This document shows positions 29,298-44,293 of a stretch of DNA of 54,496 nt, in pieces. The position numbers were made by a program, and so were the translations under genes. Position 1 is the first letter of the stretch, and each line of letters starts with the position of its first letter. The DNA lies in NCBI GenBank assembly GCA_036339975.1, contig JAYYZV010000061.1:1-54496 (forward strand), in the 5' to 3' direction. Below the pieces are notes generated by a model that saw only the letters and a program-made list of their open reading frames with translations, ran no database searches and was not told the origin of the DNA. Source of the DNA: Pseudomonadota bacterium. GTDB lineage: Bacteria; Pseudomonadota; Alphaproteobacteria; MPNO01; UBA830.

Positions 29298-30008
29298 ATG
29301 CCCCATGCATTTGAAATGCCGCAAAAATATATAGACAAAATCGTCGCGCGTATGGGTCGCTAACATTCTCAGGAGATTTTTGAGACGGAAAAAACGGCGC
29401 TAGTGGTCGTCGATATGCAGAATTATTTCATGGACGAAAGCCAGCAGGCAGGCTGCCCCGTCGGCCAGACCGTGGTCGGCAACGTCAACCGCATCGCGGA
29501 TACGGTCCGTCGAACCGGCGGTATTGTTATCTGGATCCAGAACATGGCGCCTGACGATACTCAGGAAACATGGAGTACGGCGCACGAACGGTATCTGCCC
29601 GAAAAAGCGAAACTCCGCGTAGAGTCTATGACACCCGGTGAGTGGCCATTCGAACTCTGGTCTGACCTCGACGTCAAGGACGATGACTTCCGCGTTATAA
29701 AGCGCCGGTACAGCGCCTTCATCCAAGGCTCATCCGACATCGAATTGATCCTCAAAGATAACGGGATCGAAAATATCCTCGTCTGTGGTGTAGCAACGAA
29801 TGTGTGTTGCGAGAGCACAGCACGTGACGCGATGATGCTGAACTATCGAGCGTTGATGGTCTCGGACGGTTGCGCCACGTCATCCGATGAGGAACATACG
29901 AATTCTCTAATTGCGTTTTACACGCATTTCGGTGACGTGCAGAATACTGACGAACTTTGCGCACGGCTTGAGGCCTCTGACAGGCAGAACTCAACAGCCG
30001 CTGAATAA
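29298..30008 (+). pseudogene. Isochorismatase-family cysteine hydrolase (nicotinamidase / amidase-like) interrupted by an in-frame TAA at 29361-29363
   Basis: The frame from the ATG at 29298 (GGGAG SD) reads MPHAFEMPQKYIDKIVARMGR*HSQEIFETEKTALVVVDMQNYF. The family's usual N-terminus therefore spans the stop. Catalytic Asp (VVVDMQ) and Cys (GVATNVCCESTARDA) are present downstream. The track ORF restarts at the GTG at 29403. Confidence 0.7.
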
Positions 30009-30036
30009 AACATAAGAAACTATAGGGAACAAAGAT

Positions 30037-31227
30037 ATGGCTGCCCCCGCCGCGCCGCAAACGCCGAAAGGCAAAACCGTCATCAGAAACATCGGCATGA
30101 TGCTTTCCGGCGCAATGGAAAACCCAATCCTTAACGCCGATAGTCTTATCGCAATAGATGGCAAAATCGACTCCTTCGGTAAGGAGAAGGATCTTGATAC
30201 TGATCAGGCGGACGTGAATATTGATGCACACGGAACCACATTGTGCCCCGGCCTGATCGACAGCCACGTTCATCCCGTTTTCGGCGACTGGACGCCTCGC
30301 CAAAACCAGCTTAACTGGATCGATTCATCGATGCATGGCGGCGTCACAACAATGATTTCTGCGGGTGAAGTCCATCTTCCCGGCCGGCCAAAAGATCCGA
30401 AAGGCGTTGTGGCCCTAGGTATTACCGCGCAACGCTGTTTTTCGGCCTTTCCCCCGGGTGGTGTAAAAGTTCACGCCGGCGCGCCGATCCTCGAAAAAGG
30501 TATGGTCGAGGAAGATTTCAAGGAAATGAGTGAGGCTGGCGTCAAGCTGCTGGGTGAAATTGGCCTCGGCGGCGTCAAAGCCGGCGACGAGGCAAAGAAG
30601 ATGGTCGACTGGGCCCGAAAATACGGTATCCAGTCAACGATCCATACCGGTGGTCCTTCCATCCCCGGTTCCGGTCTAATCGACAAGGACGTGGTTCTGG
30701 AAGCCGGTGCAGACATAATCGGTCACATTAATGGCGGCCACACATCGCTGCCGCTCGACCAGATTCGTTGCCTTTGTGAAGACTGTAGTGCGGGGATCGA
30801 AATCGTCCATAACGGCAATGAGAAAGCGGCACTATTCGCTCTGCGGACCGCCTTCGAATTGGATCAATCCGAAAGGGTCATTCTCGGTACAGACGGTCCA
30901 GCCGGATCTGGCGTACAGCCGCTCGGTATCATTCGCATGGTGTCAATGCTGTCGGCTCTGGGCGACATCCCTGCCGAAATCGCATTTTGTTTCGCCACCG
31001 GCAATACTGCGCGAATGCGCGACCTCGACTGCGGTCTGATAGAGAAAGGTCGCGCCGCGGATTTCGTGTTTCTAGACCGCGCACAGCACACGGCGGGCAA
31101 AGACTTGTTGGAGAGCGTCCAGATGGGCGACATTCCTGGTGTTGGGATGGTCGTCATTGACGGTCAGGTCGCGTCAGGTCGCAGCCGCAACACCCCGCCG
31201 GCGGACACTATTCCAGAACTGGTTTAA
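30037..31227 (+). CDS. Enamidase-like amidohydrolase (1,4,5,6-tetrahydro-6-oxonicotinate-type cyclic amide hydrolase)
   Basis: 396 aa. HxH metal motif GLIDSHVHP. The blocks HGGVTTMISAGEVHLPGRPKDPKG, IHTGGPSIPGS, GHINGG and the C-terminal SRNTPPA match my recollection of Eubacterium barkeri enamidase. Not verified by search. Confidence 0.65.
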   Translation: MAAPAAPQTPKGKTVIRNIGMMLSGAMENPILNADSLIAIDGKIDSFGKEKDLDTDQADVNIDAHGTTLCPGLIDSHVHPVFGDWTPRQNQLNWIDSSMHGGVTTMISAGEVHLPGRPKDPKGVVALGITAQRCFSAFPPGGVKVHAGAPILEKGMVEEDFKEMSEAGVKLLGEIGLGGVKAGDEAKKMVDWARKYGIQSTIHTGGPSIPGSGLIDKDVVLEAGADIIGHINGGHTSLPLDQIRCLCEDCSAGIEIVHNGNEKAALFALRTAFELDQSERVILGTDGPAGSGVQPLGIIRMVSMLSALGDIPAEIAFCFATGNTARMRDLDCGLIEKGRAADFVFLDRAQHTAGKDLLESVQMGDIPGVGMVVIDGQVASGRSRNTPPADTIPELV

Positions 31228-31321
31228 ATCATCTTCAGGTGTCGGTAGCCAACAACCCGTGCATGCCACCGGAAAGCAAAAATTTCTCGTCTCGTAAGGC
31301 TAATTGAACTTTCATCAGAAA

Positions 31322-31906
31322 TTATCGGAGCCCGTCTTCCCCGACCATCTCATCTGTCGTTAACCCGCCGACGCGAGGGAACGGTCGGCCAGAGTCGGTC
31401 ACCGATATTGCGACAAGAATTTCATTTGCCCGGGGAGCGTCAGCGAGACGAACTTCCATCCCATCGAAGTGGCTGCGCACGTAGGCGGCGTCCTTGTGGC
31501 CAAGCGGGACATCGATCGGCGTACCGGGCCCACCCAATTTTTTGACCGATGGAACCAAGGCCGCACCCTTCTCAACTTCCTTTCGCAGCGGTGCGCCTAA
31601 CTTCGGATGCAAGATAGCCGCAGCATGTTCCCATTCGCCGTTCTCACCGACGATTGCCGCCTTCCCATAGCTCTCTGCTTCTTCAGGTGTAATGCCCAAA
31701 GCATCGACGCACATTTTGCCAAGCACTTCACCCAGTTCGGCACCGATATCCATCAGCGCCGATAGGTCTTCCTCATATGTGCCGGCGAACGGGTTTTCGA
31801 TCACAGCCAGTGCCGCAGCCTTCCGCGTCGGCGGATTGACCTCTTTCCCGATATCCTGACGCGTTTCTTCAACAATCACCGATGTTTTGCGGATGTTGGC
31901 TGGCAT
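31322..31906 (-). CDS. 'Amino acid synthesis' family protein (PF06684/DUF1185), function unknown
   Basis: 194 aa from the ATG at 31906 (GGGGGG SD). Blocks IRK..V.EE, AVIENPFAG, YGKAAIVGENGEWEHAAA, VKKLGGPGTPIDVPLGHKDAAYVRSHFD. Paralog of 34493-35128. Confidence 0.7.
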   Translation of the reverse strand: MPANIRKTSVIVEETRQDIGKEVNPPTRKAAALAVIENPFAGTYEEDLSALMDIGAELGEVLGKMCVDALGITPEEAESYGKAAIVGENGEWEHAAAILHPKLGAPLRKEVEKGAALVPSVKKLGGPGTPIDVPLGHKDAAYVRSHFDGMEVRLADAPRANEILVAISVTDSGRPFPRVGGLTTDEMVGEDGLR

Positions 31907-31928
31907 TGCACCCCCCGTCATTACAATT

Positions 31929-31946
31929 TTGTTAGTATACATATGA
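31929..31946. promoter_or_regulatory. Box C: copy of an 18-bp quasi-palindromic box (TTGTnTGTnnACAnACAA)
   Basis: TTGTTAGTATACATATGA lies 23-40 nt upstream of the ATG at 31906, in the divergent region shared with the 32076 gene. It has 3 mismatches to the pattern. Confidence 0.4.
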
Positions 31947-32075
31947 TGTTTAAGCGGGCGAGATCCGAAGTCAATAGCTGTACCGCGCAACGAGACCTGC
32001 ATTTTTGATGGATTGCGCCTGCACCGTGCTCTGGTAAATTAGGAGAATTCTATCCAGATCAAAGAGCCTGAAGCT

Positions 32076-34430
32076 ATGCCCGACGACGCCGTAATAGATA
32101 CACTTAAATTCGGCATTGGACAGCCCGTCCTTCGGACAGAGGACCCCAAGCTGCTGACAGGTCGCGGAGAATTCACCGACGATTACAGCGCCGATGGGCA
32201 GGCCTACTGCGCCTTTTTTCGCTCGCCGGTCGCCCATGGAAGCATCATATCTATAGACACCTCTGCTGCGGAGGCGGCACCCGGCGTCATAGCAATTATT
32301 ACTGGTAAGGACCTTAGAGACGCGGGCGTGAAAGACATTCCTTGCCCGATCAGTGTCAAAAGCAGAGACGGCTCCGCCGCCGTTGTTCCACCGCGTCCGG
32401 CAATGGCCGTCGGGCAGGTAAAACACGTTGGCGATCCCGTGGCCGCGGTTATCGCGGAGACTTCTATACAAGCACGTGACGCGGCGGAGATGATCATACT
32501 CGATACCGAGAACCTGCCTTCGGTTTCGGATCCCGTGGCGGCAGAGAAAAATGGCGCGCCTCAGGTCTGGGAGGAAGCGCCGGGGAACACCTGTCTGGAT
32601 TTTCAATGCGGAGATAACGAAACAGTAGAGAAAGCCTTCGCCGATGCCGCGCACATCACCAAGATCGAGCTCACTAATACACGGGTGATCGTCAGTGCCA
32701 TGGAACCACGCGCGACGGTCGCTGAATATGATCGCGGAACTGAAAAATTCACGCTCCACGTCGGCACGCAGGGCGTCGCCGGGTATCGTGGTGCGATGTG
32801 TAATATGCTCGACATCGAACCAGATAAAATGCGGATTATCTCGAAGGAAGTGGGTGGCTCATTCGGCATGAAGGGCAGCGCATTCAATGAAGCGATCGTG
32901 GTTCTGCATGCCTCGCGAGTGCTCGGCCGGCCGGTAAAATGGACTGCCGATCGATCAGAGAGCTTTCTGTCCGATCACCATGGTCGAGCGATGACGTTCG
33001 AACTTGGCCTCGCACTCGACAAGGACGGGAACTTTCTGGCGCTCCGAGTTGATGGGGTCGGCGACATGGGCGCCTATCTGACTTCGATGGGACCTTGGCC
33101 GGCGACTATGGTGACGAGCCGTAACATCATCAGCGTCTATAAAACGCCAGCTATTTCATACAACGCTAAATGTATTTTTACGAACACTGTTCCCACAGGC
33201 CCCTACCGTGGGGCCGGCCGCCCAGAATCAAAATTCTTCATGGAGCGCCTAATCGACAAGGCGGCAGAGGAAATGGGCATCGACAGGGTTGAACTGCGGC
33301 GTCTGAATTTAATTAGTCCCGACATGCTACCCCACGAAACACCCATCGATTTGACATACGACTCCGGGGAATTCGAGACTATCATGGATTTGTGCCTCGA
33401 ACGCGCCGACTATGCCGGATACAATGCACGTAAGAAAGAATCGGAAACCGCCGGCATGATCCGGGGCTTCGGCGTCGCACCCTACTTGGAAACCACAGCA
33501 GGACCCGGCACAGAACTTGCCGACATCCGATTTGAGGATGACGGTACCGTTACGTTAGTTACCGGCAACAAGGATTTTGGTATGGGCCACGCGACACCCT
33601 TCGCACAGGTGTTGTCAACCAAACTTGGTATTCCGTTCGAGGCCATCAACCTCGTGCAGTACGATTCCGATGAGATGAGCACCGGCGCCGGCGGATCCGG
33701 CGGTTCACGATCCATGATCGCCGCCAGTGGCGCGATACTCGAATGCGCCGAGACCATCATTGAAAACGGAAAGAAACTCGCGGGTCACGTGCTGGAGGCA
33801 GCGGTCGAGGATATCGAATTCACTGATGGCGTGTTCACAGTCGTAGGGACAGACCGAAACATCGGAATAATGACGCTTTCACATAAGGCCCGCGAATTGG
33901 ATGGCGCGGGCGATTTACCAGCGAACCTATCGCACAAGGTTAACCACGACACGGCCCCAATCAGCTTCCCGAACGGATGTCACATAGCAGAGGTAGAGAT
34001 TGATCCAGATACCGGCGTGGTCGCCATTGATCGTTACACCGTGGTGGACGATTTCGGTGTGGTGGTAAACCCGCTGATCGTCGAGGGACAAGTCCATGGT
34101 GGCATCGCCCAGGGTATTGGCCAGGTTCTGGCCGAAGATACAATCTACGACGACGAAGGCCAGCTTATGACCGGAACGTATCTCGATTATCAATTACCAA
34201 GAGCCGACGATATCGCCCACATCAATTTCACAACACACGCGGTACCGTGCAAAACCAACCCTCTGGGCGTCAAGGGCTGCGGGGAAGCCGGAAATGGCGG
34301 ATCCTACCCTGTGATCTACAACGCTATTATGGACGCGCTTGACGGCAATGGGGGAAAAGAACTGGGAATACCAGCGACTCCTCACCGCATCTGGCAAGCG
34401 ATTAGGCAACGCGGATTGGGCGTAGGCTAA
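32076..34430 (+). CDS. Molybdopterin-binding large subunit of a xanthine-dehydrogenase-family hydroxylase (CoxL form-II-like), stand-alone
   Basis: 784 aa. N-terminal a/b-hammerhead start (IGQPVLRTEDPKLLTGRGEFTDDY). Active-site loop GPYRGAGRPE (the AYRGAGR-type of form II CoxL-like enzymes). No adjacent Fe-S or FAD subunit genes. Confidence 0.85.
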   Translation: MPDDAVIDTLKFGIGQPVLRTEDPKLLTGRGEFTDDYSADGQAYCAFFRSPVAHGSIISIDTSAAEAAPGVIAIITGKDLRDAGVKDIPCPISVKSRDGSAAVVPPRPAMAVGQVKHVGDPVAAVIAETSIQARDAAEMIILDTENLPSVSDPVAAEKNGAPQVWEEAPGNTCLDFQCGDNETVEKAFADAAHITKIELTNTRVIVSAMEPRATVAEYDRGTEKFTLHVGTQGVAGYRGAMCNMLDIEPDKMRIISKEVGGSFGMKGSAFNEAIVVLHASRVLGRPVKWTADRSESFLSDHHGRAMTFELGLALDKDGNFLALRVDGVGDMGAYLTSMGPWPATMVTSRNIISVYKTPAISYNAKCIFTNTVPTGPYRGAGRPESKFFMERLIDKAAEEMGIDRVELRRLNLISPDMLPHETPIDLTYDSGEFETIMDLCLERADYAGYNARKKESETAGMIRGFGVAPYLETTAGPGTELADIRFEDDGTVTLVTGNKDFGMGHATPFAQVLSTKLGIPFEAINLVQYDSDEMSTGAGGSGGSRSMIAASGAILECAETIIENGKKLAGHVLEAAVEDIEFTDGVFTVVGTDRNIGIMTLSHKARELDGAGDLPANLSHKVNHDTAPISFPNGCHIAEVEIDPDTGVVAIDRYTVVDDFGVVVNPLIVEGQVHGGIAQGIGQVLAEDTIYDDEGQLMTGTYLDYQLPRADDIAHINFTTHAVPCKTNPLGVKGCGEAGNGGSYPVIYNAIMDALDGNGGKELGIPATPHRIWQAIRQRGLGVG

Positions 34431-34492: not shown

Positions 34493-35128
34493 TCAGCGCA
34501 GTCCGTCTTCGCCAACAACATCCTCGTTTTTTAAGCCGGCCGACCGGCTATAAATCCGAGGACCATTAGACATCGACTGTATCCAGACGATTTCGTTCGC
34601 TCGCGGGGCATCATTGATAGAGCATACGACAGTATCAAAATGAGAGCGGACGTATGCAGCATTGGCGTGAGCGATCGGCACGTCGATAGTGCAACCGGGG
34701 CCTCCTACCTTCTTAGTAGACGGAACGATCGCTGCCGATTTTTGCATCAACTGTCGCATTCCATATCCGCCGGGCTCGTGCCACAACGCGGCGTGCTCCA
34801 ATTCGCCGTTTTCTCCAACGATGGCAGCCTTGCCATAGGCGACGATAGCATCCGCGCCACCCATTACCGCCATCAGTTTCTTGGACATTTCAATACCCAT
34901 CGGTTTGAGCTGCTCCATTAATGGCAGGATGTCCTCTACATATTTTCCGGCATAAGGATTGTGCGTGACGGCCGCGATGTAGCCCTTCAGTTGCGGACGT
35001 TCTGCCGGTGGACCAAATTCGTGCAAAACCTCCTCGACATGCATCACAAACTTTCGGACCTTGACCAAATCTCCGAAATCTCCGTTGGTCGTCGTTTCCA
35101 CTGCGATTCTTCCATCATCCATTATCAT
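34493..35128 (-). CDS. 'Amino acid synthesis' family protein (PF06684/DUF1185), function unknown
   Basis: 211 aa. Blocks VRKFVMHVEE, AVTHNPYAG, YGKAAIVGENGELEHAAL, TKKVGGPGCTIDVPIAHANAAYVRSHFD. Its start overlaps the stop of the upstream UPF0280 gene (ATGATAATGGATGA). Confidence 0.7.
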   Translation of the reverse strand: MIMDDGRIAVETTTNGDFGDLVKVRKFVMHVEEVLHEFGPPAERPQLKGYIAAVTHNPYAGKYVEDILPLMEQLKPMGIEMSKKLMAVMGGADAIVAYGKAAIVGENGELEHAALWHEPGGYGMRQLMQKSAAIVPSTKKVGGPGCTIDVPIAHANAAYVRSHFDTVVCSINDAPRANEIVWIQSMSNGPRIYSRSAGLKNEDVVGEDGLR

Positions 35129-35999
35129 TTCCTTTTATGCTGACCGTTTCCGGCAGGGTCGCAGGCAAATCGCCCAAGGCCCGGATTTCATTTTTCAATA
35201 CCAGCACCGCCGCCGTAATGAGTCCAGCCTCATACATGCGGCCAGCCACTTCGATGCCGTTGCCCAATGCTTTTTCAACTGTCGTCGGATCCAGAAGACC
35301 AACATTCACTGTCACCATTCTATCACCGAGGTCGGACTGATCGTCCTGTTCCGACGCCGGCGCTCTTTCTATCGCCTCATGATCTGCGTTCACGGCATTG
35401 GCTATAAGTGTCGCAGCCACATCCGCTGCCGCCGCGTTTTCAGCAAGCACCGTCACCGCGTCAGCAATTCCGAGAGACCAGCTTCGCCCTTGCCAACCAC
35501 TAGTGGCTACACCTCGCACAGGCCGGTCGAACGCTAGTTCTGTTGTGCCGTCGATTGCGGCGTAAAAAAGCTGTCCTACGATACCTAACTTTAGCGTTTC
35601 TCCGGGCGTCAGGTAGACAGCTATGTCGCCGGAATTATTGATGTAAGCCTTCTCCAGGCAACGTCCATCGAGAAGGGCGCTCATCATCTCGTCAGCAACA
35701 GAGCCAGCGACCGCCGCCATCGGGGTCAAGAACGTTTCCCTATGCGGCCAGGCCGCGTCAAGCATTCGTATTGCCGTCGGTCCCTTTACATTGGGACGGA
35801 GGTCGCAGAGTGGCCGGCGCAGTACAGACAACTCCTTGGCCAATTCCACCAGAACCGTCTCGAATTTCAACCGGGCCTGCATGTAAGCTGCCGCGACTTC
35901 GTCGAGGGATCCAAACGCCTCTATTACGAGATCAATAGGCCCGTGCTGCAGGTGTAGCCGGCGACCATCTGCCAGCAATCCGACTTGTGGAACATCCAT
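35115..35999 (-). CDS. UPF0280-family protein (ApbE-like fold by my recollection), function unknown
   Basis: 294 aa from the ATG at 35999, 5 nt after the stop of the upstream reductase gene. N-terminal block DGRRLHLQHGPIDLVIEAFG resembles UPF0280 proteins. The track start 36044 would overlap the upstream gene by 40 nt. Confidence 0.5.
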   Translation of the reverse strand: MDVPQVGLLADGRRLHLQHGPIDLVIEAFGSLDEVAAAYMQARLKFETVLVELAKELSVLRRPLCDLRPNVKGPTAIRMLDAAWPHRETFLTPMAAVAGSVADEMMSALLDGRCLEKAYINNSGDIAVYLTPGETLKLGIVGQLFYAAIDGTTELAFDRPVRGVATSGWQGRSWSLGIADAVTVLAENAAAADVAATLIANAVNADHEAIERAPASEQDDQSDLGDRMVTVNVGLLDPTTVEKALGNGIEVAGRMYEAGLITAAVLVLKNEIRALGDLPATLPETVSIKGNDNG

Positions 36000-36004
36000 C
36001 CTGC

Positions 36005-37537
36005 TCAGGTGTCTTCCAGCGCCATTCGTTCTGCCAGAGGCCAAGGGTTATTGCCCTGCCAAGCCATGGGCTGAACGCCGTGCAGACCGCCTTCGCGAAT
36101 AACGTCGGTAAGGGGCTTAATATGATCTTCGTAGCCTCCTAACGCTAGGTATTCCTCGCGTGACATAGAGAACTCAATAGGGGCTACTAGGGCTGGTGTC
36201 GGCACGTAACCGAAGGAATCGTTCGGCAAACGTAGAACGTCGACCATTACAGTAATGCCACCGCCGGGCCATACATATACGGGTGCGCCGCCACAGGTAA
36301 CACGGGTACGCAATTCGCGCACCGAGCGTGTCAGCAAAACCGGGTTTACAGTTACCCCTGCCCGCAAAGACCCGCCAGCACCGCCCATGAACAAGACCGT
36401 GCTAAGCGCAGGTTCACAGTTTTCTGCAATCCGATCGACCGAAGTCTCGAGGTCGGCCGGCATTTCGGCGGGTACGGGTTTCAGGTCATCGTCCAGTATG
36501 AAGTAGGCCTGATCCTCGCCTGTGGTGCTCACCATCAGAAGACGAAGACCCGCCCATGCAACATCGGGGTCAATACTCTCTATTATTGATAGCGGTTCGG
36601 TGATGTCGGTACCGCCCCACCCAGCACCGGGCTCAGCTACCTGAAAGTAGCGGCCAGGTGTCGAACGGCGGCCGCGCACGCGAATACCAGCCGACGGCAT
36701 ATCTAGGAATTTTCCCGACTGGTGTTCCGAAAGAACACCAGTGATGTGATCATCTACCACAATGACTTCGTCGGCATGACCATGCCATTGCAGTGCGAAC
36801 ATTCCGATAGCAGCCGACCCACAGCCAACGCGCATCCGCTCCTCTTGATTTGTGTCAATTATTGGAGGTTCGCCGGCCTGAACCGTCAATGTTGCACCTC
36901 CATCAATTGTCATTTCCACCCGGTCCTTGTTGCAAAGAGACAACATCGACTGACATGTGACGTTGCCTTCTTTCTTCGCGCCGCCAGTCAGATGGTGTAC
37001 GCCGCCGAGGGCAAGCATCTGTGAACCATACTCGGCAGTCGTTACATGACCGATTTTTTCACCTTTGACGCGGACCGGCGCCGATTCCGGGCCAATAAAG
37101 CGGTCAGTGTCGATCTTTACTTTGACACCGCAGTAGCTGAAAACCCCCTCCGATACGACCGTGACCATATCGACGTCATGATGTTCCGATGACACGATAA
37201 ACGGTGCCGGCTTGTAATCGGGGTAGGTGGTGGTTGCGCCAATGCCGGTAATAAAGGACGGGGATTGGAAGTTCATCGATCCATCCCAGTCTTCCTGTTC
37301 GGGCAAGAACGGAACAAGCCCCCCGTTTTCATCAGAAATTTGCTGTGTAACGATCACCGGATCGGTCCGCGTCAGCTTTCCGTTGACATTACCGTAGCGG
37401 CTGCAGGCTCCGGTTTTTTCTGGGCGAATTCGACACAATACGGGACAGGCGTCGCAAGTGATGACGCCATCGTCTTTGACGTCGCCTGCTTTTATCCCGG
37501 ACGCGCCTTCGGCCTTGGCCTCGGTTTTTTGGCTCAT
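36005..37537 (-). CDS. Putative 6-hydroxynicotinate reductase-like (ferredoxin-dependent N-heterocycle ring reductase)
   Basis: 510 aa. N-terminal Cys cluster CDACPVLCRIRPEKTGAC. The size and its neighbours (enamidase-like, Mo hydroxylase, UPF0280, DUF1185) fit the proteobacterial 'hnr' context as I remember it. The ATG overlaps the stop of the upstream gene (TAATG). Confidence 0.55.
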   Translation of the reverse strand: MSQKTEAKAEGASGIKAGDVKDDGVITCDACPVLCRIRPEKTGACSRYGNVNGKLTRTDPVIVTQQISDENGGLVPFLPEQEDWDGSMNFQSPSFITGIGATTTYPDYKPAPFIVSSEHHDVDMVTVVSEGVFSYCGVKVKIDTDRFIGPESAPVRVKGEKIGHVTTAEYGSQMLALGGVHHLTGGAKKEGNVTCQSMLSLCNKDRVEMTIDGGATLTVQAGEPPIIDTNQEERMRVGCGSAAIGMFALQWHGHADEVIVVDDHITGVLSEHQSGKFLDMPSAGIRVRGRRSTPGRYFQVAEPGAGWGGTDITEPLSIIESIDPDVAWAGLRLLMVSTTGEDQAYFILDDDLKPVPAEMPADLETSVDRIAENCEPALSTVLFMGGAGGSLRAGVTVNPVLLTRSVRELRTRVTCGGAPVYVWPGGGITVMVDVLRLPNDSFGYVPTPALVAPIEFSMSREEYLALGGYEDHIKPLTDVIREGGLHGVQPMAWQGNNPWPLAERMALEDT

Positions 37538-40284
37538 TATTTACTTCCCCTTTGAGCAAGGATCGCGGCTCGAACCCGATCCGGCGTAGCGGGTGCCTGT
37601 TTCATATGCACGCCAGTGGCATGATAGATTGCCCCGAATATGGCGGGCGGCGTTGGAATCAGAGCCGGCTCACCTATACCCTTAGCGCCGTACGGGCCCG
37701 TCGGTTCTGGGTCTTCAATCAGAAATACATCGATCGGCGGCACGTCACCGAAGGTTGGCATCAGATAATCGTGAAGGTTCTCGGTAAGGCCCGGGATGTA
37801 TTCCTCCATTAGGGCGAGACCGAGACCCTGCGCCACTCCACCATGTATCTGCCCTTCGACCTGCATCGGGTTGATTGCAGCGCCTACATCGTGTGCGGCC
37901 CAAACGTGCAGCACTTTTACTGTGCCAAGCTCGGTATCAACTTCAACCTCGGCGACCTGGGCCCCAAACCCATATGTACCGTAGGGGTTTCCCTGCCCCA
38001 TTTCGTCCAGCGGCGTGGCCGGGGGATCGAATGTCGCCTCGCCTAAAAGTACATTGCCATCATGTTTGTCGGCGGGAAGAACTGTCAGGTCAATCTCGCG
38101 GACCGCGGCGTCGTCTGTAACAGTAAGCTTCCCTTCACCAAACTCGAAGGTCGCATCGTCCCCGGCATTCGCCATGCGCAGTATCTGGCGGCGCAGATCC
38201 TCTCCGGCTTCCATGGCCGCACGGCCGGACACATACGCCTGTCGCGACGCCGAGCTTTTGCCCGCATCGGCCGTCAGATCCGTATCTCCCCAGACCAGAT
38301 TAACCCGGTCCATGTGGATGCCAAGCGCATCGGCCACGACCTGAACCATCGTCGTGTTAGTACCTTGGCCAATGTCCTGCGCCCCAGAATATAGGGTAAC
38401 GGTTCCATCAGAAGCTATACCGATCTGCATGGTTGAAGGGTTCGAGAGAGAGGTATTACCGCAGCCATACCACATGCAGCCTACGCCGACGCCACGGCGT
38501 TTGGCACCATGGGTCTCAGCGTTGAATTTCTCTGCCGCTACCCGGGCCCTTTTCCAAGGGGCCCGAAGCGCCTCAAGACACTGATCAAGTCCAGCGGAAT
38601 ATTCCAGCACCTGTCCCGTTGCTGTTTCCTGGCCTTTTCGGATGGCATTGCGGAGCCGAAAATCCAGCGGATCCATACCTATCGCCTCAGCCATGCGGTC
38701 CATTAGGTTATCATGTGCGATCGCGGCCTGTGGAATTCCAAACCCACGGAAAGCGCCGGCGGGCGTGCCATTCGTGAAAATACCGCGCGCCTTGGCCTCG
38801 ACGTTGGGTACGAAATACGGGCCGGTGGCATGCACCGGGACCCGGTCCTTTACCGTCAACCCCCAAGAGACATAAGCGCCTGTGTCAAAATCGCCGTCAA
38901 CCTCATAAGCAACCAGATCTCCATCCTTGGTACATCCATAACGCGCGGTGATTCGAGACGGGTGCCGCTTAGTGGACGCCGACATAGACTCGATCCGGTT
39001 CCACGTGCAACGGACCGGCTTATTCAAAATCCAGGCAGCAAGGCCGATTACCGGGTGGACGCCGAGGTCCAACTTCCCGCCGAAACCGCCGCCACACGCT
39101 GTAGGGATCACACGAACCGATTCATTGGGCAGCCCCAATATGTTGGCAACCTCGTCACGATCCATATAAGGGGCTTGGGTCGAAACCGTGATTTCCAGTC
39201 GGTCGCCGACACGCCGCGCCCACCCGGCTTCTGGCTCGATATAGCCGTGCTCTACAAATCCGGTCCGATAGGAATCCTCAATCACCACATCCGCGGTTTT
39301 CATCGCCGCAGCGGCGTCCCCTTTCTTCACGTACCCCTCAGCCATGACGTTGCCCGGATAGCCCTCGTGAATCCGATGGGCATCTTCAGCTAGTGCTGCA
39401 TCGAAGCCGTAAATATCGTCGCGTTCCTGATAGAATATCGGCAGGTCGTCGTCCCGAATACCGAAGACGGTCTCGTAATCGCCGACCAGCGCGACCACAT
39501 TTTCGCCTTTGAATCTAACTTCACCGTCAGCGAAGGCGGGCTGGTCCTTGATATTTGGATACACGCCGTAGCCATTCAGACCGGGTATGTCGGCTGCTGT
39601 CAGGATCCGTTCAAGACCTGACCATTCATCATACAACGGCTGAAAATCACCCAGCGTGAACGTCGCGCTCGCATGTGGGGAGCGTACTGCCCTTGCCCAT
39701 AAAGCATCGCTCGGCGCCTGATCAGCGCCATATTTCTCTGTCCCATCGACCTTCTGGATACCGTCGGTTTTCAGCGCACGGGCTCCCATGGCGTCGCCAA
39801 CATTTGGATACTGGAACGACTGTCCATTCGGCTGCACGACGTGCTTCACCGCATCAACGATATTGCGATAGCCGGTGCAGCGGCAAAGAACGCCGCCCAT
39901 TGCGTCCATAATCTGTTTTTCGTTTGGCGTCTCATTGCGTTTGAAGAGGTCTACCGCCGCCATCAGCATGCCGGGGGTGCAGATACCGCACTGCGCCGCG
40001 CCGTATTCGTGAAATGCCCGCTGCAAGTCGGTAAGCCGCCCGTCCTGACCAGCGAGGCCCTCTACAGTAGTTACGTCCCGCCCCTCAACTTGCGCTAAGG
40101 GCACGAGACACGAACATACCTGTTCTCCGTCCAAAAGGACCGTGCAGGCACCACAATCGCCTGCATCACAACCGACTTTCGTGCCGGTGTAGCCGAGATC
40201 GTCACGCAACACATTGGCAAGCCGACAGACCGGATCGGCTGCGGTGACAGCCGATTTACCGTTGAGATTAAATGAAATAGACAT
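37537..40284 (-). CDS. Xanthine-dehydrogenase-family hydroxylase, fused [2Fe-2S] and molybdopterin-binding subunit (nicotinate-dehydrogenase-like)
   Basis: 915 aa. N-terminal two-cluster ferredoxin part (GCDAGDCGACTV, CGICTPG, CRCTGY). Mo domain with an XDH-type loop GAFRGFGIPQ. Confidence 0.85.
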   Translation of the reverse strand: MSISFNLNGKSAVTAADPVCRLANVLRDDLGYTGTKVGCDAGDCGACTVLLDGEQVCSCLVPLAQVEGRDVTTVEGLAGQDGRLTDLQRAFHEYGAAQCGICTPGMLMAAVDLFKRNETPNEKQIMDAMGGVLCRCTGYRNIVDAVKHVVQPNGQSFQYPNVGDAMGARALKTDGIQKVDGTEKYGADQAPSDALWARAVRSPHASATFTLGDFQPLYDEWSGLERILTAADIPGLNGYGVYPNIKDQPAFADGEVRFKGENVVALVGDYETVFGIRDDDLPIFYQERDDIYGFDAALAEDAHRIHEGYPGNVMAEGYVKKGDAAAAMKTADVVIEDSYRTGFVEHGYIEPEAGWARRVGDRLEITVSTQAPYMDRDEVANILGLPNESVRVIPTACGGGFGGKLDLGVHPVIGLAAWILNKPVRCTWNRIESMSASTKRHPSRITARYGCTKDGDLVAYEVDGDFDTGAYVSWGLTVKDRVPVHATGPYFVPNVEAKARGIFTNGTPAGAFRGFGIPQAAIAHDNLMDRMAEAIGMDPLDFRLRNAIRKGQETATGQVLEYSAGLDQCLEALRAPWKRARVAAEKFNAETHGAKRRGVGVGCMWYGCGNTSLSNPSTMQIGIASDGTVTLYSGAQDIGQGTNTTMVQVVADALGIHMDRVNLVWGDTDLTADAGKSSASRQAYVSGRAAMEAGEDLRRQILRMANAGDDATFEFGEGKLTVTDDAAVREIDLTVLPADKHDGNVLLGEATFDPPATPLDEMGQGNPYGTYGFGAQVAEVEVDTELGTVKVLHVWAAHDVGAAINPMQVEGQIHGGVAQGLGLALMEEYIPGLTENLHDYLMPTFGDVPPIDVFLIEDPEPTGPYGAKGIGEPALIPTPPAIFGAIYHATGVHMKQAPATPDRVRAAILAQRGSK

Positions 40285-40286
40285 AT

Positions 40287-41123
40287 TTACTCCGTCAGTT
40301 CGGCAAGCGCACGCCGGACAAGCGTCAGCGCCGCGTCTCGGCGGTAATCAGCGGAGCCGCGTACATCCCCGATAGGGCTAAGCGGTAACAGATGATCCTC
40401 GGACACGAGATTGACCAAACCTGCATCGGCGGGTTTACCAGCAAGCAAAGTCTCAAGAGACGGAAGGCGCGTCGCCACCTCTGAACATGAACCAACGGCG
40501 ATACGGCATCGACCGACAGTGCCATCTGCCGCCTTTTCAAGGACTGCGGACACCATGACGATCGAAATAACCAGATATTTTCGGGCTCCGAGTTTTAAGA
40601 ACGTGCTTTTGGCACCATTATTACATTTCGGTATTAACAAACCGACAACTAGTTCATCACCCTTTCGCGCAGTCCGGCGATTTCCAAGAACGAAATCAGA
40701 GATAGGTATATCCCGTTGGCCGGAAACCGAGGCCAGCCGAACAAGCGCATCCAGCGCGATCAGTCCGGGGGCACCATCGGCGGCCGGCGACGCATTGCAA
40801 ACATTTCCGACGATTGTCCCAGCGTTTTGGATCTGCATGCCGCCAACCTCCCGGGCCGCCAATTTCATGACCCGAAACCAGTCAGGCAGATCCGCGCGGA
40901 TCAGATCAGTCCACGTTGCACCCGCGCCTAAAAAATAGTGATCACCCCTCTCTTCGATCGAACCTAAGCCCTCAATGCCTGTGACGTCGAGTACGTCTTC
41001 GTCTATTGGTTTACCGACCCGTGCCGGATAAAAATCCGTCCCGCCGGCGACAATAGTCCGTCCCCCTACAGATAGCGCGTCTAATGCCTCGGAAAGTGCC
41101 GTAGGTCTGAGATAGGATGACAT
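40287..41123 (-). CDS. FAD-binding subunit of molybdenum hydroxylase (CoxM/XdhB-like)
   Basis: 278 aa. FAD-binding PCMH-type N-terminus (IVAGGTDFYP). C-terminal CO-dehydrogenase flavoprotein domain (IGDVRGSADYRR). Stop lies 2 nt before the next ATG. Confidence 0.85.
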   Translation of the reverse strand: MSSYLRPTALSEALDALSVGGRTIVAGGTDFYPARVGKPIDEDVLDVTGIEGLGSIEERGDHYFLGAGATWTDLIRADLPDWFRVMKLAAREVGGMQIQNAGTIVGNVCNASPAADGAPGLIALDALVRLASVSGQRDIPISDFVLGNRRTARKGDELVVGLLIPKCNNGAKSTFLKLGARKYLVISIVMVSAVLEKAADGTVGRCRIAVGSCSEVATRLPSLETLLAGKPADAGLVNLVSEDHLLPLSPIGDVRGSADYRRDAALTLVRRALAELTE

Positions 41124-41389: not shown

Positions 41390-43255
41390 ATGGCAACAAA
41401 TGTCGCCCCCTCCGATGACGGAGAGCGCAAGGCTCTAGACTCTGTGGTGATCCGTTTCGCCGGTGACTCCGGGGACGGTATGCAGCTTACTGGCACACAA
41501 TTTACTCAGTCGACAGCCCTAATGGGTAACGATCTCGCGACTTTCCCGGATTTTCCGGCAGAAATCCGTGCCCCGGCCGGCACCACGTTCGGCGTCAGCG
41601 CGTTTCAGATCAACTTCGCATCCTATGACATCCAAACCCCAGGCGACGATCCAGACGTTCTAGTTGCTATGAACCCCGCAGCATTAAAAGTCCATCTGAA
41701 GGACGTTCCTAAAGGCGGGACAATTATTCTTAACGTCGATGCGTTCACAGACCGCAACGTCGCGCGCGCCGGATATGAGGAAAGCCCTCTCGACGACGGC
41801 ACCTTGGACAACCATGTCGTCATCGCGATCGAGATTAATAAACTGACAAACGCTGCCGTCGCCGATTGCGACGTGACTTCCAAGGAAGCTACACGCTGCA
41901 AAAATTTCTGGGCCCTCGGGCTGATGTGCTGGATGTATAACCGAGACCGCCAGCCGACCGTCGAGTGGGTCGAACAACGGTTCGGAAAACTGCCGAATAT
42001 AGCAGCGGCAAATATAGCGGCTCTCAATGCAGGCCACGCCTATGGAGAAACCGTCGAGCTACCATCTGGTGTCGAAGCCTATGTCGTGCCGAGAGCAGAT
42101 GTTCAACCCGGCACCTATCGTGCCGTCACCGGCACTGAAGCAGTCGCCTGGGGCCTTGTCGCAGGCGCCAAAAAAGCGGGACTTGAACTTTTCCTTGGTT
42201 CCTATCCGATTACGCCAGCCTCCGCCCTGCTGCACACCCTGACCGGCCTAAAACCTCACGGCGTTACCACATTCCAGGCGGAAGACGAAATAGCCGCGGT
42301 GTGCTCGGCGATCGGCGCAGCATATGCAGGTTCGCTGGGCGTTACGTCATCCTCCGGACCAGGTATTGCGCTTAAGACCGAAGCTATCGGGCTTGCTTTG
42401 GTCACCGAACTACCGCTGGTAGTTGTCAATGTCCAGCGCGGCGGGCCCTCAACCGGTCTTCCGACGAAAACCGAACAATCTGACCTATTCCAGGCAGTTT
42501 ATGGCCGTAACGCGGATACACCGCTGCCGGTAGTTGCGTCGCGTACCGCCGGTGACTGCTTTGAAACAGCGATCGAGGCGGTCCGTCTAGCCACCAAATA
42601 CATGACACCGGTCATCCTCCTGACCGATGGATTCCTCGCCAATTCGGCGGAGCCTTGGGAAATTCCGGACGCCGATGCCATTGCCGATTTTCCGGTCGAA
42701 TTCCGTTCCAACCCCGACGGCTTCCATCCATACCTTCGCGACGAAAAAACGCTGGCGCGAAACTGGGCTATTCCCGGCACTCCAGGGCTGATGCACCGCA
42801 TCGGCGGAATCGAAAAAGACTATGACAGTGGTCATATTTCCTATGATAGTGACAACCACCACAGAATGACGAAAGTTCGCGCCGCCAAGATCGACGGCAT
42901 TGCCGACGACATACCGTCTCAGGAGGTCGCCACCGGCCAAGACACCGGTAAGCTCGCGGTTGTCGGCTGGGGATCGACCTTTGGGGCAATTAACCAAGCG
43001 GTCCGGCGCTGTGTTGCTGACGGGATAAGCGTATCGCACATCCACCTGAGGCATATACACCCCTTCCCCAAAAACCTCGGGGACCTGCTTTCGGGTTTCG
43101 ATCAGGTCATGGTGCCAGAAATGAACAACGGACAACTCGTCCATGTACTGCGCGACAAGTACCTCGTCGACGCTGAAAGCATTACTCAAATAACGGGTCA
43201 ACCCTTCAAGGTTTCGACCCTTGAAAGCGAGATCCGCTCGCGGGTTGGAGGATAA
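41390..43255 (+). CDS. korA: 2-oxoglutarate/2-oxoacid:ferredoxin oxidoreductase, alpha subunit
   Basis: 621 aa. N-terminal VVIRFAGDSGDGMQLTG and the size typical of the two-subunit KorAB type. Followed 3 nt later by the ThDP-binding beta subunit. Confidence 0.85.
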   Translation: MATNVAPSDDGERKALDSVVIRFAGDSGDGMQLTGTQFTQSTALMGNDLATFPDFPAEIRAPAGTTFGVSAFQINFASYDIQTPGDDPDVLVAMNPAALKVHLKDVPKGGTIILNVDAFTDRNVARAGYEESPLDDGTLDNHVVIAIEINKLTNAAVADCDVTSKEATRCKNFWALGLMCWMYNRDRQPTVEWVEQRFGKLPNIAAANIAALNAGHAYGETVELPSGVEAYVVPRADVQPGTYRAVTGTEAVAWGLVAGAKKAGLELFLGSYPITPASALLHTLTGLKPHGVTTFQAEDEIAAVCSAIGAAYAGSLGVTSSSGPGIALKTEAIGLALVTELPLVVVNVQRGGPSTGLPTKTEQSDLFQAVYGRNADTPLPVVASRTAGDCFETAIEAVRLATKYMTPVILLTDGFLANSAEPWEIPDADAIADFPVEFRSNPDGFHPYLRDEKTLARNWAIPGTPGLMHRIGGIEKDYDSGHISYDSDNHHRMTKVRAAKIDGIADDIPSQEVATGQDTGKLAVVGWGSTFGAINQAVRRCVADGISVSHIHLRHIHPFPKNLGDLLSGFDQVMVPEMNNGQLVHVLRDKYLVDAESITQITGQPFKVSTLESEIRSRVGG

Positions 43256-43258
43256 GCC

Positions 43259-44293
43259 ATGAACGTCGAGACCCCTGTCGAAGCCTTAAAGCCAAACGAC
43301 TACGCTTCCGACCAGGAAGTCCGCTGGTGTCCCGGATGCGGCGATTATGCTATTGTCAAGGGTGTACACCGCACACTTGCCGAACTGCAAATTCCGCTTG
43401 AAAAGCTCGTGTTTTTCTCGGGCATTGGCTGCGCGGCACGGTTTCCCTACTACATGGCGTCGTATGGTTTTCACACTATACATGGACGCGCGCCGGCACT
43501 GGCCACCGGCGCGAAGCTCGCTAACCCTGACCTCGACATCTGGGTCGTGATGGGCGACGGCGACGCTTTATCGATCGGCGGCAACCACACGATGCACGCT
43601 ATCCGCCGTAACGTCGATCTAAACCTGTTGCTGTTCAATAACGAAATATATGGTCTGACCAAGGGTCAATATTCACCGACAAGTCAACTCGGCACCCGAT
43701 CACCCTCTACACCGCAGGGTTCAGTCGACGCACCGCTGACGCCGCTTACCCTTGCCCTCGGGGCGGGTGCAAGGTTCGTTGCCCGCACCTTCGATACTAA
43801 CCAGAAACAGATGCCAGGCGTCTTAAAAGCCGCGCACGCTCACAAGGGCGCCTCTCTCGTCGAGATTATCCAGAACTGCATCGTTTATAACGACGGCGCG
43901 TTTGACGGATGGACTGACAAGAAAGTGGTGGGCGACAATTCAATCACGGTCGAGCATTCCAAGCCGTTGATTTTTGGCGCTGACAGCAACAAAGGTATCG
44001 CTCGCGCCGAGGACGGTTTCGGCATCAGAGTTGTCACAATTGGTGAAGACGGTATCACCGAAGAGGATATCCTTGTTCATGACGAGACCAACAAGATGCT
44101 CGCCATGATGCTCGCTGATATGAAGCAGCCGGAATTCCCAGTCGCGCTCGGCGTACTCTATAATAATCCGAGTAAAGCTTATGACGAGGCGGTCCATGAA
44201 CAGCTCGCCGCCGTCAAGGAAGCCAACCCGGCCGGCACCATCAACGAGATGCTCCGCAAAGGGCGGACCTGGACCGTATCTGAAGGAGCTTAG
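43259..44293 (+). CDS. korB: 2-oxoglutarate/2-oxoacid:ferredoxin oxidoreductase, beta subunit (ThDP-binding)
   Basis: 344 aa. WCPGCGDY Cys motif. ThDP motif GDGDALSIGGNH...FNNEIYGLTKGQ. Confidence 0.85.
   Translation: MNVETPVEALKPNDYASDQEVRWCPGCGDYAIVKGVHRTLAELQIPLEKLVFFSGIGCAARFPYYMASYGFHTIHGRAPALATGAKLANPDLDIWVVMGDGDALSIGGNHTMHAIRRNVDLNLLLFNNEIYGLTKGQYSPTSQLGTRSPSTPQGSVDAPLTPLTLALGAGARFVARTFDTNQKQMPGVLKAAHAHKGASLVEIIQNCIVYNDGAFDGWTDKKVVGDNSITVEHSKPLIFGADSNKGIARAEDGFGIRVVTIGEDGITEEDILVHDETNKMLAMMLADMKQPEFPVALGVLYNNPSKAYDEAVHEQLAAVKEANPAGTINEMLRKGRTWTVSEGA

Follow-up and report, generated by a model that had tools for sequence, protein, structure and literature searches.

UPF0280 is encoded directly downstream of Hnr in a predicted nicotinate operon

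The window analysed here, the whole 54,496-nucleotide (nt) contig JAYYZV010000061.1 of a Pseudomonadota bacterium (assembly GCA_036339975.1, alphaproteobacterial lineage UBA830), carries on its minus strand five closely packed genes, in which a gene of the UPF0280 family directly follows that of a 6-hydroxynicotinate reductase (Hnr, EC 1.3.7.1) homolog. Hnr is the key ring-reducing enzyme in the reductive nicotinate pathway, and UPF0280, also known as COG2122, is a family found widely, for which clear genetic phenotypes have been described. The original prediction, made from the sequence of the window, had proposed that UPF0280 attaches flavin to the reductase. We found that the UPF0280 clade to which this protein belongs is a well supported dedicated partner of Hnr, for which transfer of flavin mononucleotide (FMN) is the leading, still tentative, specific mechanism. 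From upstream to downstream, the genes and the junction in question are as follows.

40287..41123, minus strand: flavin adenine dinucleotide (FAD)-binding subunit of a nicotinate-dehydrogenase-type molybdenum (Mo) hydroxylase, 278 amino acids (aa), operon gene 1 (Pfam FAD_binding_5, 2.9e-34, and CO_deh_flav_C)
37537..40284, minus strand: fused [2Fe-2S]/molybdopterin-binding hydroxylase subunit, 915 aa (Pfam Fer2_2, MoCoBD_1, MoCoBD_2)
36005..37537, minus strand: Hnr homolog, 510 aa, the name being taken from homologs
35997..36007, minus strand: junction of the Hnr stop and the UPF0280 start, TGA-GCAGG-ATG, with a 5-nt spacer, read directly from the sequence
35115..35999, minus strand: UPF0280/PF27030 protein, 294 aa (NCBIfam NF003322, 350.6 bits)
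34493..35128, minus strand: DUF1185/AA_synth protein, 211 aa, final operon gene (PF06684, 3.2e-67; PDB 2qtp and 3byq, ~1e-45)

The reverse complement of 35997-36007 is TGAGCAGGATG, i.e. the stop TGA of Hnr, the spacer GCAGG and then the ATG of UPF0280. The UPF0280 stop TGA (35117-35115) falls within the DUF1185 open reading frame (ORF), so that the two overlap by 14 nt counted from the ATG at 35128, or by 8 nt from an alternative ATG at 35122, which has AAGGA 7 nt upstream and is better placed. Further upstream, the stop TAA of the Mo-subunit gene and the ATG of Hnr have base 37537 in common (TAATG, 37539-37535), and 2 nt lie between the FAD-subunit gene end and the Mo-subunit gene. A promoter scan of the operon region gave a promoter-like site only upstream of 41123 (41196-41168), and a terminator scan of the minus strand found no convincing internal site, the sole one (40165-40143) being weak and inside the Mo-subunit gene. 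Together, the gene junctions, the single promoter-like site and the lack of a convincing internal terminator predict a nicotinate operon of five co-translated genes from 41123 to 34493, with Hnr, UPF0280 and DUF1185 as its tail. Thus, the 5-nt spacing and the stop-start overlap described in the original prediction are borne out, and the unit that it had drawn from the reductase to DUF1185 reaches further upstream.

UPF0280 accompanies Hnr across phyla

No Pfam or NCBIfam model covers the Hnr family, and none matches the 510-aa reductase ORF; its relatives of 70–81% identity are called 6-hydroxynicotinate reductase by NCBI and JGI, and its assignment to the Hnr family follows these named homologs, the adjacent Mo hydroxylase and an enamidase-like gene nearby. 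Among 1.84 billion cluster representatives (50% identity), 1371 Hnr matches were obtained at E ≤ 0.001, many of them fragments, which span several bacterial phyla and archaea.

A profile scan of one genome per species yielded at least 599 Hnr matches, and in the best 80, all proteobacterial, UPF0280 was found downstream of Hnr in 76 of the 77 loci with room for it. The Hnr stop and the UPF0280 start are a median of 3 nt apart, with overlaps of 1 or 4 nt at 34 of 82 junctions; an insert of 450–740 nt, with a MarR-type gene in several cases, lies between the two genes in ~14 loci. About nine loci contain the pair without a nearby Mo hydroxylase, indicating that UPF0280 tracks Hnr and not the hydroxylase. 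Reverse scanning, in which metagenomes were searched from a diverse UPF0280 alignment, gave 67 loci with room, with Hnr immediately upstream in 59, elsewhere in the locus in five and not seen in three. Therefore, a UPF0280 of this clade is nearly always accompanied by an adjoining Hnr, and in Proteobacteria the converse holds as well, which answers the co-occurrence check that the original prediction had called for.

The order of hydroxylase, enamidase, Hnr, PF27030 and often AA_synth is kept in a hydrothermal-vent bacterium, a deltaproteobacterium, a spirochaete and a Bathyarchaeota archaeon, and the Hnr proteins of these pairs, and of locus L089, have an identity of only 34–42%; in L089 a UPF0280-like N-terminus begins 22 nt past Hnr, and at the Bathyarchaeota locus UPF0280 stands beside Hnr with no Mo hydroxylase within 7 kb. 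A plasmid of the cultured Sulfitobacter pontiacus shows the same overlapping gene order in the annotation of the Prokaryotic Genome Annotation Pipeline (PGAP). DUF1185 follows UPF0280 in many loci, though not all. Every Hnr-linked UPF0280 scores highest on NF003322 and not on the three other sub-models of the family, which points to an Hnr-specific orthologous clade. The pairing of Hnr and UPF0280 is not due to chance.

Two side observations concern the pair itself. In Hyphomicrobiales/Bosea loci (L045, L050, L055, L063, L064, L070, L076, L077 and L079), a gene of ~460 nt, MarR-type where clearly readable, separates Hnr from UPF0280 and breaks their translational coupling. Database proteins that appear as Hnr-UPF0280 fusions (P0277, P0357 and P0365) were rejected as frameshift or assembly artefacts, as real segments alternate in them with Arg/Ala/Pro-rich out-of-frame translation.

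UPF0280 is predicted to have an ApbE-like fold and retains the ApbE core motifs

The window protein matched NF003322 over residues 2-281 with 350.6 bits (cut-off 290) and NF003321, NF003323 and NF003324 with 61–67 bits only, and the precomputed Pfam family of an identical protein is PF27030 ('AbpE_bact'). By phmmer, it matched the structure 2o34 with E 2.9e-5. Its AlphaFold2 (AF2) model reached a predicted local distance difference test score (pLDDT) of 87.7, and Foldseek placed DVU1097 (2o34) on top (E 2.5e-11, template modelling (TM) scores 0.57/0.70), followed exclusively by the FMN transferases FmnB, Ftp and ApbE (E 3e-6 to 1e-3, TM ~0.45–0.52). Overall, ~39 ApbE/Ftp/FmnB chains matched the model with a probability of 0.93–1.0 and TM ~0.3–0.5, and further matches were noise. 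The ApbE-like structure that had been anticipated is thus what the prediction returns, and UPF0280 is modelled as an ApbE-derived fold. Since no signal peptide or lipobox was read in its N-terminus, UPF0280 is presumably cytoplasmic.

In sequence the relation is more distant. The window protein gave no match to Pfam ApbE (PF02424) even at E ≤ 10; one Hnr-linked ortholog (L085) lies above the gathering score of that family (30.1 versus 25.6 bits, profile positions 126-202), and three others match below the cut-off. With a shallow alignment (A1), hhalign aligned only 16–17 residues to E. coli Ftp, and a 148-sequence profile was needed to align UPF0280 residues 4-230 with Ftp 111-336 (E 6.8e-5). 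In that register, HGPIDLVI, AAVAGSVAD, NNSGDIA, ATSG and VTVLAENAAAADVAAT of UPF0280 face VGPLVNLW, STVGEGYAAD, SVGGALN, STSG and VTVIAPTALEADAWDT of Ftp, respectively, so the ApbE core, i.e. GP, AAVAG, NxGGDI, TSG and the Asp/Thr magnesium motif, is kept. The residues G20, P21, A96-G99, G124, D125, T166-G168, G171-S173, D193 and T197 are 97–100% conserved among the 148 sequences, which are otherwise 30–40% identical. Two of the core motifs are located as follows.

35496..35504, minus strand: UPF0280 T166-S167-G168, aligned with the ApbE TSG (Ftp GISTSG), 97–100% conserved (n = 148)
35409..35423, minus strand: UPF0280 D193-V-A-A-T197, aligned with the ApbE ADxxxT (Ftp EADAWDT), D193 100% and T197 99% conserved

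The ADxxxT motif binds Mg2+ in ApbE and Ftp structures, and the putative Mg2+/pyrophosphate site, S167, D193 and T197, is 99–100% conserved and aligned to the TSG and EADAWDT of Ftp. The ApbE of V. cholerae has a trio of Ser241, His257 as the general base, and Asp285 (PMC12052999), of which the Ser and Asp are retained in UPF0280.

Hnr has a conserved four-Cys motif and no recognisable flavin domain

Within the Hnr sequence, a cysteine motif is located as follows.

37403..37456, minus strand: Hnr CxxCxxxCx9C, residues 28-45, with C28, C31, C35 and C45 invariant

These four cysteines are invariant in the alignments A2 and A3 and in 92 aligned locus sequences, and presumably form an Fe-S cluster site; C239 is conserved universally. 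Distant full-length Hnr proteins (28–42% identity) mostly have an extra N-terminal 2×[4Fe-4S] ferredoxin domain, which is present in most anaerobe and archaeal Hnr and absent from the window Hnr and other proteobacterial ones. When 17 diverse Hnr sequences were scanned against Pfam at E ≤ 10, the only matches were ferredoxin domains and, in eight of the 17, a weak GCV_T_C barrel; neither a recognisable flavin-binding domain nor an FMN_bind domain was among them. The GCV_T_C-like β-barrel signal, at about residues 136-173 and accompanied by a marginal GcvT fold match, was the sole recurring weak signal. An AF2 model of Hnr, built from 45 sequences of 68–92% identity, was tried for placing the flavin and its acceptor and was not usable (pLDDT 56, <50 in the motif region), and Foldseek with this low-confidence model gave no match below E 0.4. 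In two database proteins of ~970 aa (P0245 and P0254), Hnr is fused to a GltD-like NAD(P)H/FAD/Fe-S module, which suggests a pyridine-nucleotide-driven Hnr variant. Hnr of E. barkeri, the only organism for which this is said, reportedly carries a covalently bound flavin; to our knowledge, neither Hnr nor a relative has a solved structure, and the flavin linkage has not been described.

UPF0280 is a candidate FMN transferase acting on Hnr

In ApbE, the counterparts of the conserved UPF0280 residues contact Mg2+ and the pyrophosphate of the dinucleotide; the simplest reading is therefore that UPF0280 acts on Hnr in a nucleotide-dependent way. FMN transfer from FAD suggests itself as the candidate reaction, since E. 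barkeri Hnr reportedly holds its flavin covalently and no flavin domain is recognisable in Hnr, and we put the probability that UPF0280 is an FMN transferase acting on Hnr at roughly 0.4. By this mechanism, UPF0280 would be made by termination-reinitiation directly after Hnr and would bind, in the ApbE core pocket that it retains (AAVAG, NxGGDI, TSG, D193…T197), a Mg2+-nucleotide-diphosphate cofactor, which is most plausibly FAD. It would then attach the flavin moiety to a side-chain hydroxyl group of apo-Hnr, at a site other than the canonical one, yielding an acid-stable flavin of the kind reported for the E. barkeri enzyme. Ferredoxin would pass electrons to the 4-Cys Fe-S site, from which they would reach the flavin and finally 6-hydroxynicotinate.

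Four points weigh against FMN transfer: UPF0280 lacks the general-base His and the N-terminal segment of ApbE, Hnr does not carry the acceptor motif, and some Hnr lineages have no UPF0280 nearby. The HxxDPxTG loop that holds the general-base His is deleted in UPF0280, with a shortening from ~29 to ~13 residues. In the alignment, Leu or Thr stands where ApbE has the His, L176 being at that position in the window protein, and no His is conserved in the clade (148 sequences). About 70 residues of the ApbE N-terminal part have no counterpart in UPF0280, as the alignment begins at Ftp 111, and the homology of COG2122 to ApbE was described to stop short of the flavin-binding region (PMC5764234). On the side of the reductase, the original prediction had named an acceptor candidate, of which the numbering is corrected here from 95-104 to 96-105.

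37223..37252, minus strand: Hnr ITGIGATTTY, residues 96-105, aligned as a glycine-rich loop

The ApbE acceptor motif is D-x-x-[S/T]-G-A-[S/T] (PMC12052999); it occurs in none of 135 distinct Hnr sequences, and [ST]GA[ST] occurs in one. ITGIGATTTY is a local version of a GIGAGTT loop found family-wide, in which most homologs have Gly at T102, and this loop is present in Hnr lineages that lack UPF0280 and degenerate (GS--KY) in the UPF0280-linked Bathyarchaeota Hnr. It neither fits the ApbE motif nor tracks UPF0280, which weakens the proposed acceptor site, and may rather be a glycine-rich loop for phosphate binding than a tag for flavinylation. A comparison of Ser, Thr, Tyr, His and Cys conservation between UPF0280-linked and unlinked Hnr gave no discriminating column, the linked set being mostly proteobacterial.

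As for the gene neighbourhoods, six deep Hnr-like lineages on long separate branches (P0251, P0334, P0253, P0517, P0528 and P0260) have no PF27030 gene within the available 2–7 kb, and one of these, P0517, lies in a complete enamidase and hydroxylase cluster beside a B12-binding gene; L069 is the only proteobacterial locus without UPF0280 within 10 kb. Canonical ApbE was considered as a replacement where UPF0280 is missing and none was found, ApbE fragments appearing only in L082 and L083, both with UPF0280. There, on one anaerobe contig, canonical ApbE (PF02424; 15204-15524, minus strand) lies ~5.7 kb downstream of Hnr-UPF0280, so both branches of the ApbE superfamily coexist in that organism.

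Finally, the genetic ties of other COG2122 members are with homocysteine synthesis and sulfide assimilation and not with flavin (PMC5764234, PMC9431491): together with DUF39 and NIL/ferredoxin, COG2122 is required for homocysteine synthesis of the DUF39 type in D. vulgaris (PMC5764234). The original prediction, which knew of no function assigned to UPF0280, is accordingly out of date on this point, even though no biochemical activity is known. What stands of the flavin-attachment proposal is the ApbE-like fold, the dedicated pairing with Hnr and the core motifs; the lack of the acceptor motif, the family-wide nature of the ITGIGATTTY loop, the losses of the His and the N-terminus, the UPF0280-less lineages and the homocysteine role of COG2122 weaken it.

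Alternative roles of UPF0280

The tight translational coupling, which is typical of equimolar complex partners, the very strict synteny in both directions and the loss of the catalytic His loop would also suit a stoichiometric, non-catalytic subunit or chaperone of Hnr, the degenerate pocket of which holds a nucleotide or flavin, or stabilises the reductase, without covalent transfer. There is a precedent of a sort, in that Salmonella ApbE was initially described just as an FAD-binding protein (title of PDB 3pnd). However, the conservation of TSG, D193, T197 and G124-D125 at 97–100%, in sequences that otherwise share 30–40% identity, suggests chemistry over scaffolding, several Hnr-like lineages apparently work without an adjacent UPF0280, and the database fusions, as artefacts, lend no support, so that we regard a purely structural role as rather unlikely.

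An involvement in sulfur or Fe-S maturation of Hnr could be modelled on the part in persulfide/sulfide assimilation that COG2122 has been proposed to play alongside DUF39 in methanogens and Desulfovibrio: the fitness of COG2122 parallels that of DUF39 in D. vulgaris (r = 0.98; PMC5764234), M. acetivorans MA1715 (COG2122) is needed for growth at low sulfide (PMC5764234, PMC9431491), and Hnr itself has the invariant 4-Cys motif and the universal C239. Yet the Hnr-linked proteins form a separate NF003322 clade with no conserved Cys, 12 of the 148 sequences having no Cys at all, and lack the C-terminal Cys motif of the methanogen protein (PMC9431491). HcyBio (DUF39) was matched neither in the 17 diverse Hnr sequences nor, like NIL, among the ~20 window ORFs scanned; a homology between Hnr and DUF39 was thus looked for and not shown. 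We consider a sulfur-related role distinctly unlikely. Still less probable is that UPF0280 acts as a small-molecule enzyme of the nicotinate pathway, or serves the Mo hydroxylase, e.g. with a dinucleotide cofactor, instead of Hnr. It does share the operon with the hydroxylase, with enamidase and DUF1185 genes nearby, and the ApbE-type pocket binds dinucleotides (PMC12052999), but UPF0280 stays by Hnr in the ~9 hydroxylase-less loci and at the archaeal locus, a complete hydroxylase-enamidase-Hnr cluster without UPF0280 exists, and the characterised members of the fold all act on proteins (PMC12052999).

Relation to known systems and significance

UPF0280 shares with ApbE, Ftp and FmnB (PF02424) the fold and, in register, GP, the AAVAG/GGIAKG-type loop, NxGGDI, TSG and ADxxxT. 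It differs from them in having no lipoprotein signal, no N-terminal ~70 residues and no HxxDPxTG loop, and its partner Hnr has neither the D-x-x-[S/T]-G-A-[S/T] site nor an FMN_bind domain. Dedication to one redox enzyme has counterparts in the ApbE family: among the ApbEs known to serve a single reductase are a cytoplasmic one in Klebsiella and a fused domain in trypanosomes (PMC12052999).

DVU1097 (2o34), MA1715 and DvMF_0044 are, like the window protein, small cytoplasmic members of the UPF0280/DUF375 family, and 2o34 is the best match in both structure and sequence. COG2122 of the DUF39 system and Hnr-linked UPF0280 are alike in that the function of each is tied to a single ferredoxin-linked reductive enzyme; they differ in the NCBIfam sub-model, in the lack of conserved Cys in the latter and in the partner, which is DUF39 plus NIL/ferredoxin in methionine synthesis for the former and Hnr in nicotinate catabolism for the latter. 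These likenesses could be extended to a family-wide proposal, in which all UPF0280/COG2122 proteins would be cytoplasmic ApbE-derived enzymes that place a nucleotide-derived cofactor on ferredoxin-dependent reductases, independently of the His and at a new acceptor site; Hnr and the DUF39 homocysteine synthase would then both be clients. We offer this as speculation, with the odds clearly against it. If true, it would account for Hnr's covalent flavin and for the need that methanogens and sulfate reducers have of COG2122.

Databases and one paper already record the gene order, the assignment to the family and its labelling as ApbE superfamily. The literature searched does not mention UPF0280 by name, and none of it ties an ApbE-like protein to Hnr or its covalent flavin. 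In the nicotinate clusters of Azorhizobium caulinodans, Bradyrhizobium and strain SG-6C, with which the window was compared and whose identical order is PGAP-annotated in the S. pontiacus plasmid, the literature gives the two unknown proteins no role. If UPF0280 is a transferase, the ApbE reaction would reach a branch that is divergent, cytoplasmic and devoid of the His, and that uses a new acceptor site, UPF0280/COG2122 would gain its first biochemical function, and active recombinant Hnr would become producible; if it is not, the strict pairing still marks UPF0280 as an essential accessory factor worth characterising.

Genes surrounding the operon

Compared with the clusters of A. caulinodans, Bradyrhizobium and SG-6C, the window adds a divergent 2-oxoacid:ferredoxin oxidoreductase, a second DUF1185 gene and a second Mo-subunit gene. 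The oxidoreductase is encoded on the plus strand at 41390-44293 (alpha 41390-43255, beta 43259-44293), divergently from the nicotinate operon, and could be a source of reduced ferredoxin for Hnr; the operon of the Sulfitobacter plasmid starts instead with a ferredoxin-NADP reductase. On the other side, the cluster runs on across 29403-34430 on both strands.

29403-30008: isochorismatase/nicotinamidase-like gene
30037-31227: enamidase-like amidohydrolase
31322-32002, minus strand: second DUF1185 paralog
32076-34430: stand-alone second Mo-hydroxylase large subunit, without its own Fe-S or FAD subunit

In the Hnr clusters that have no DUF1185 (L090, L093 and L094), RidA (Ribonuc_L-PSP) genes replace it, and both RidA and DUF1185 may process the enamine/imine or 2-formylglutarate left by the enamidase.

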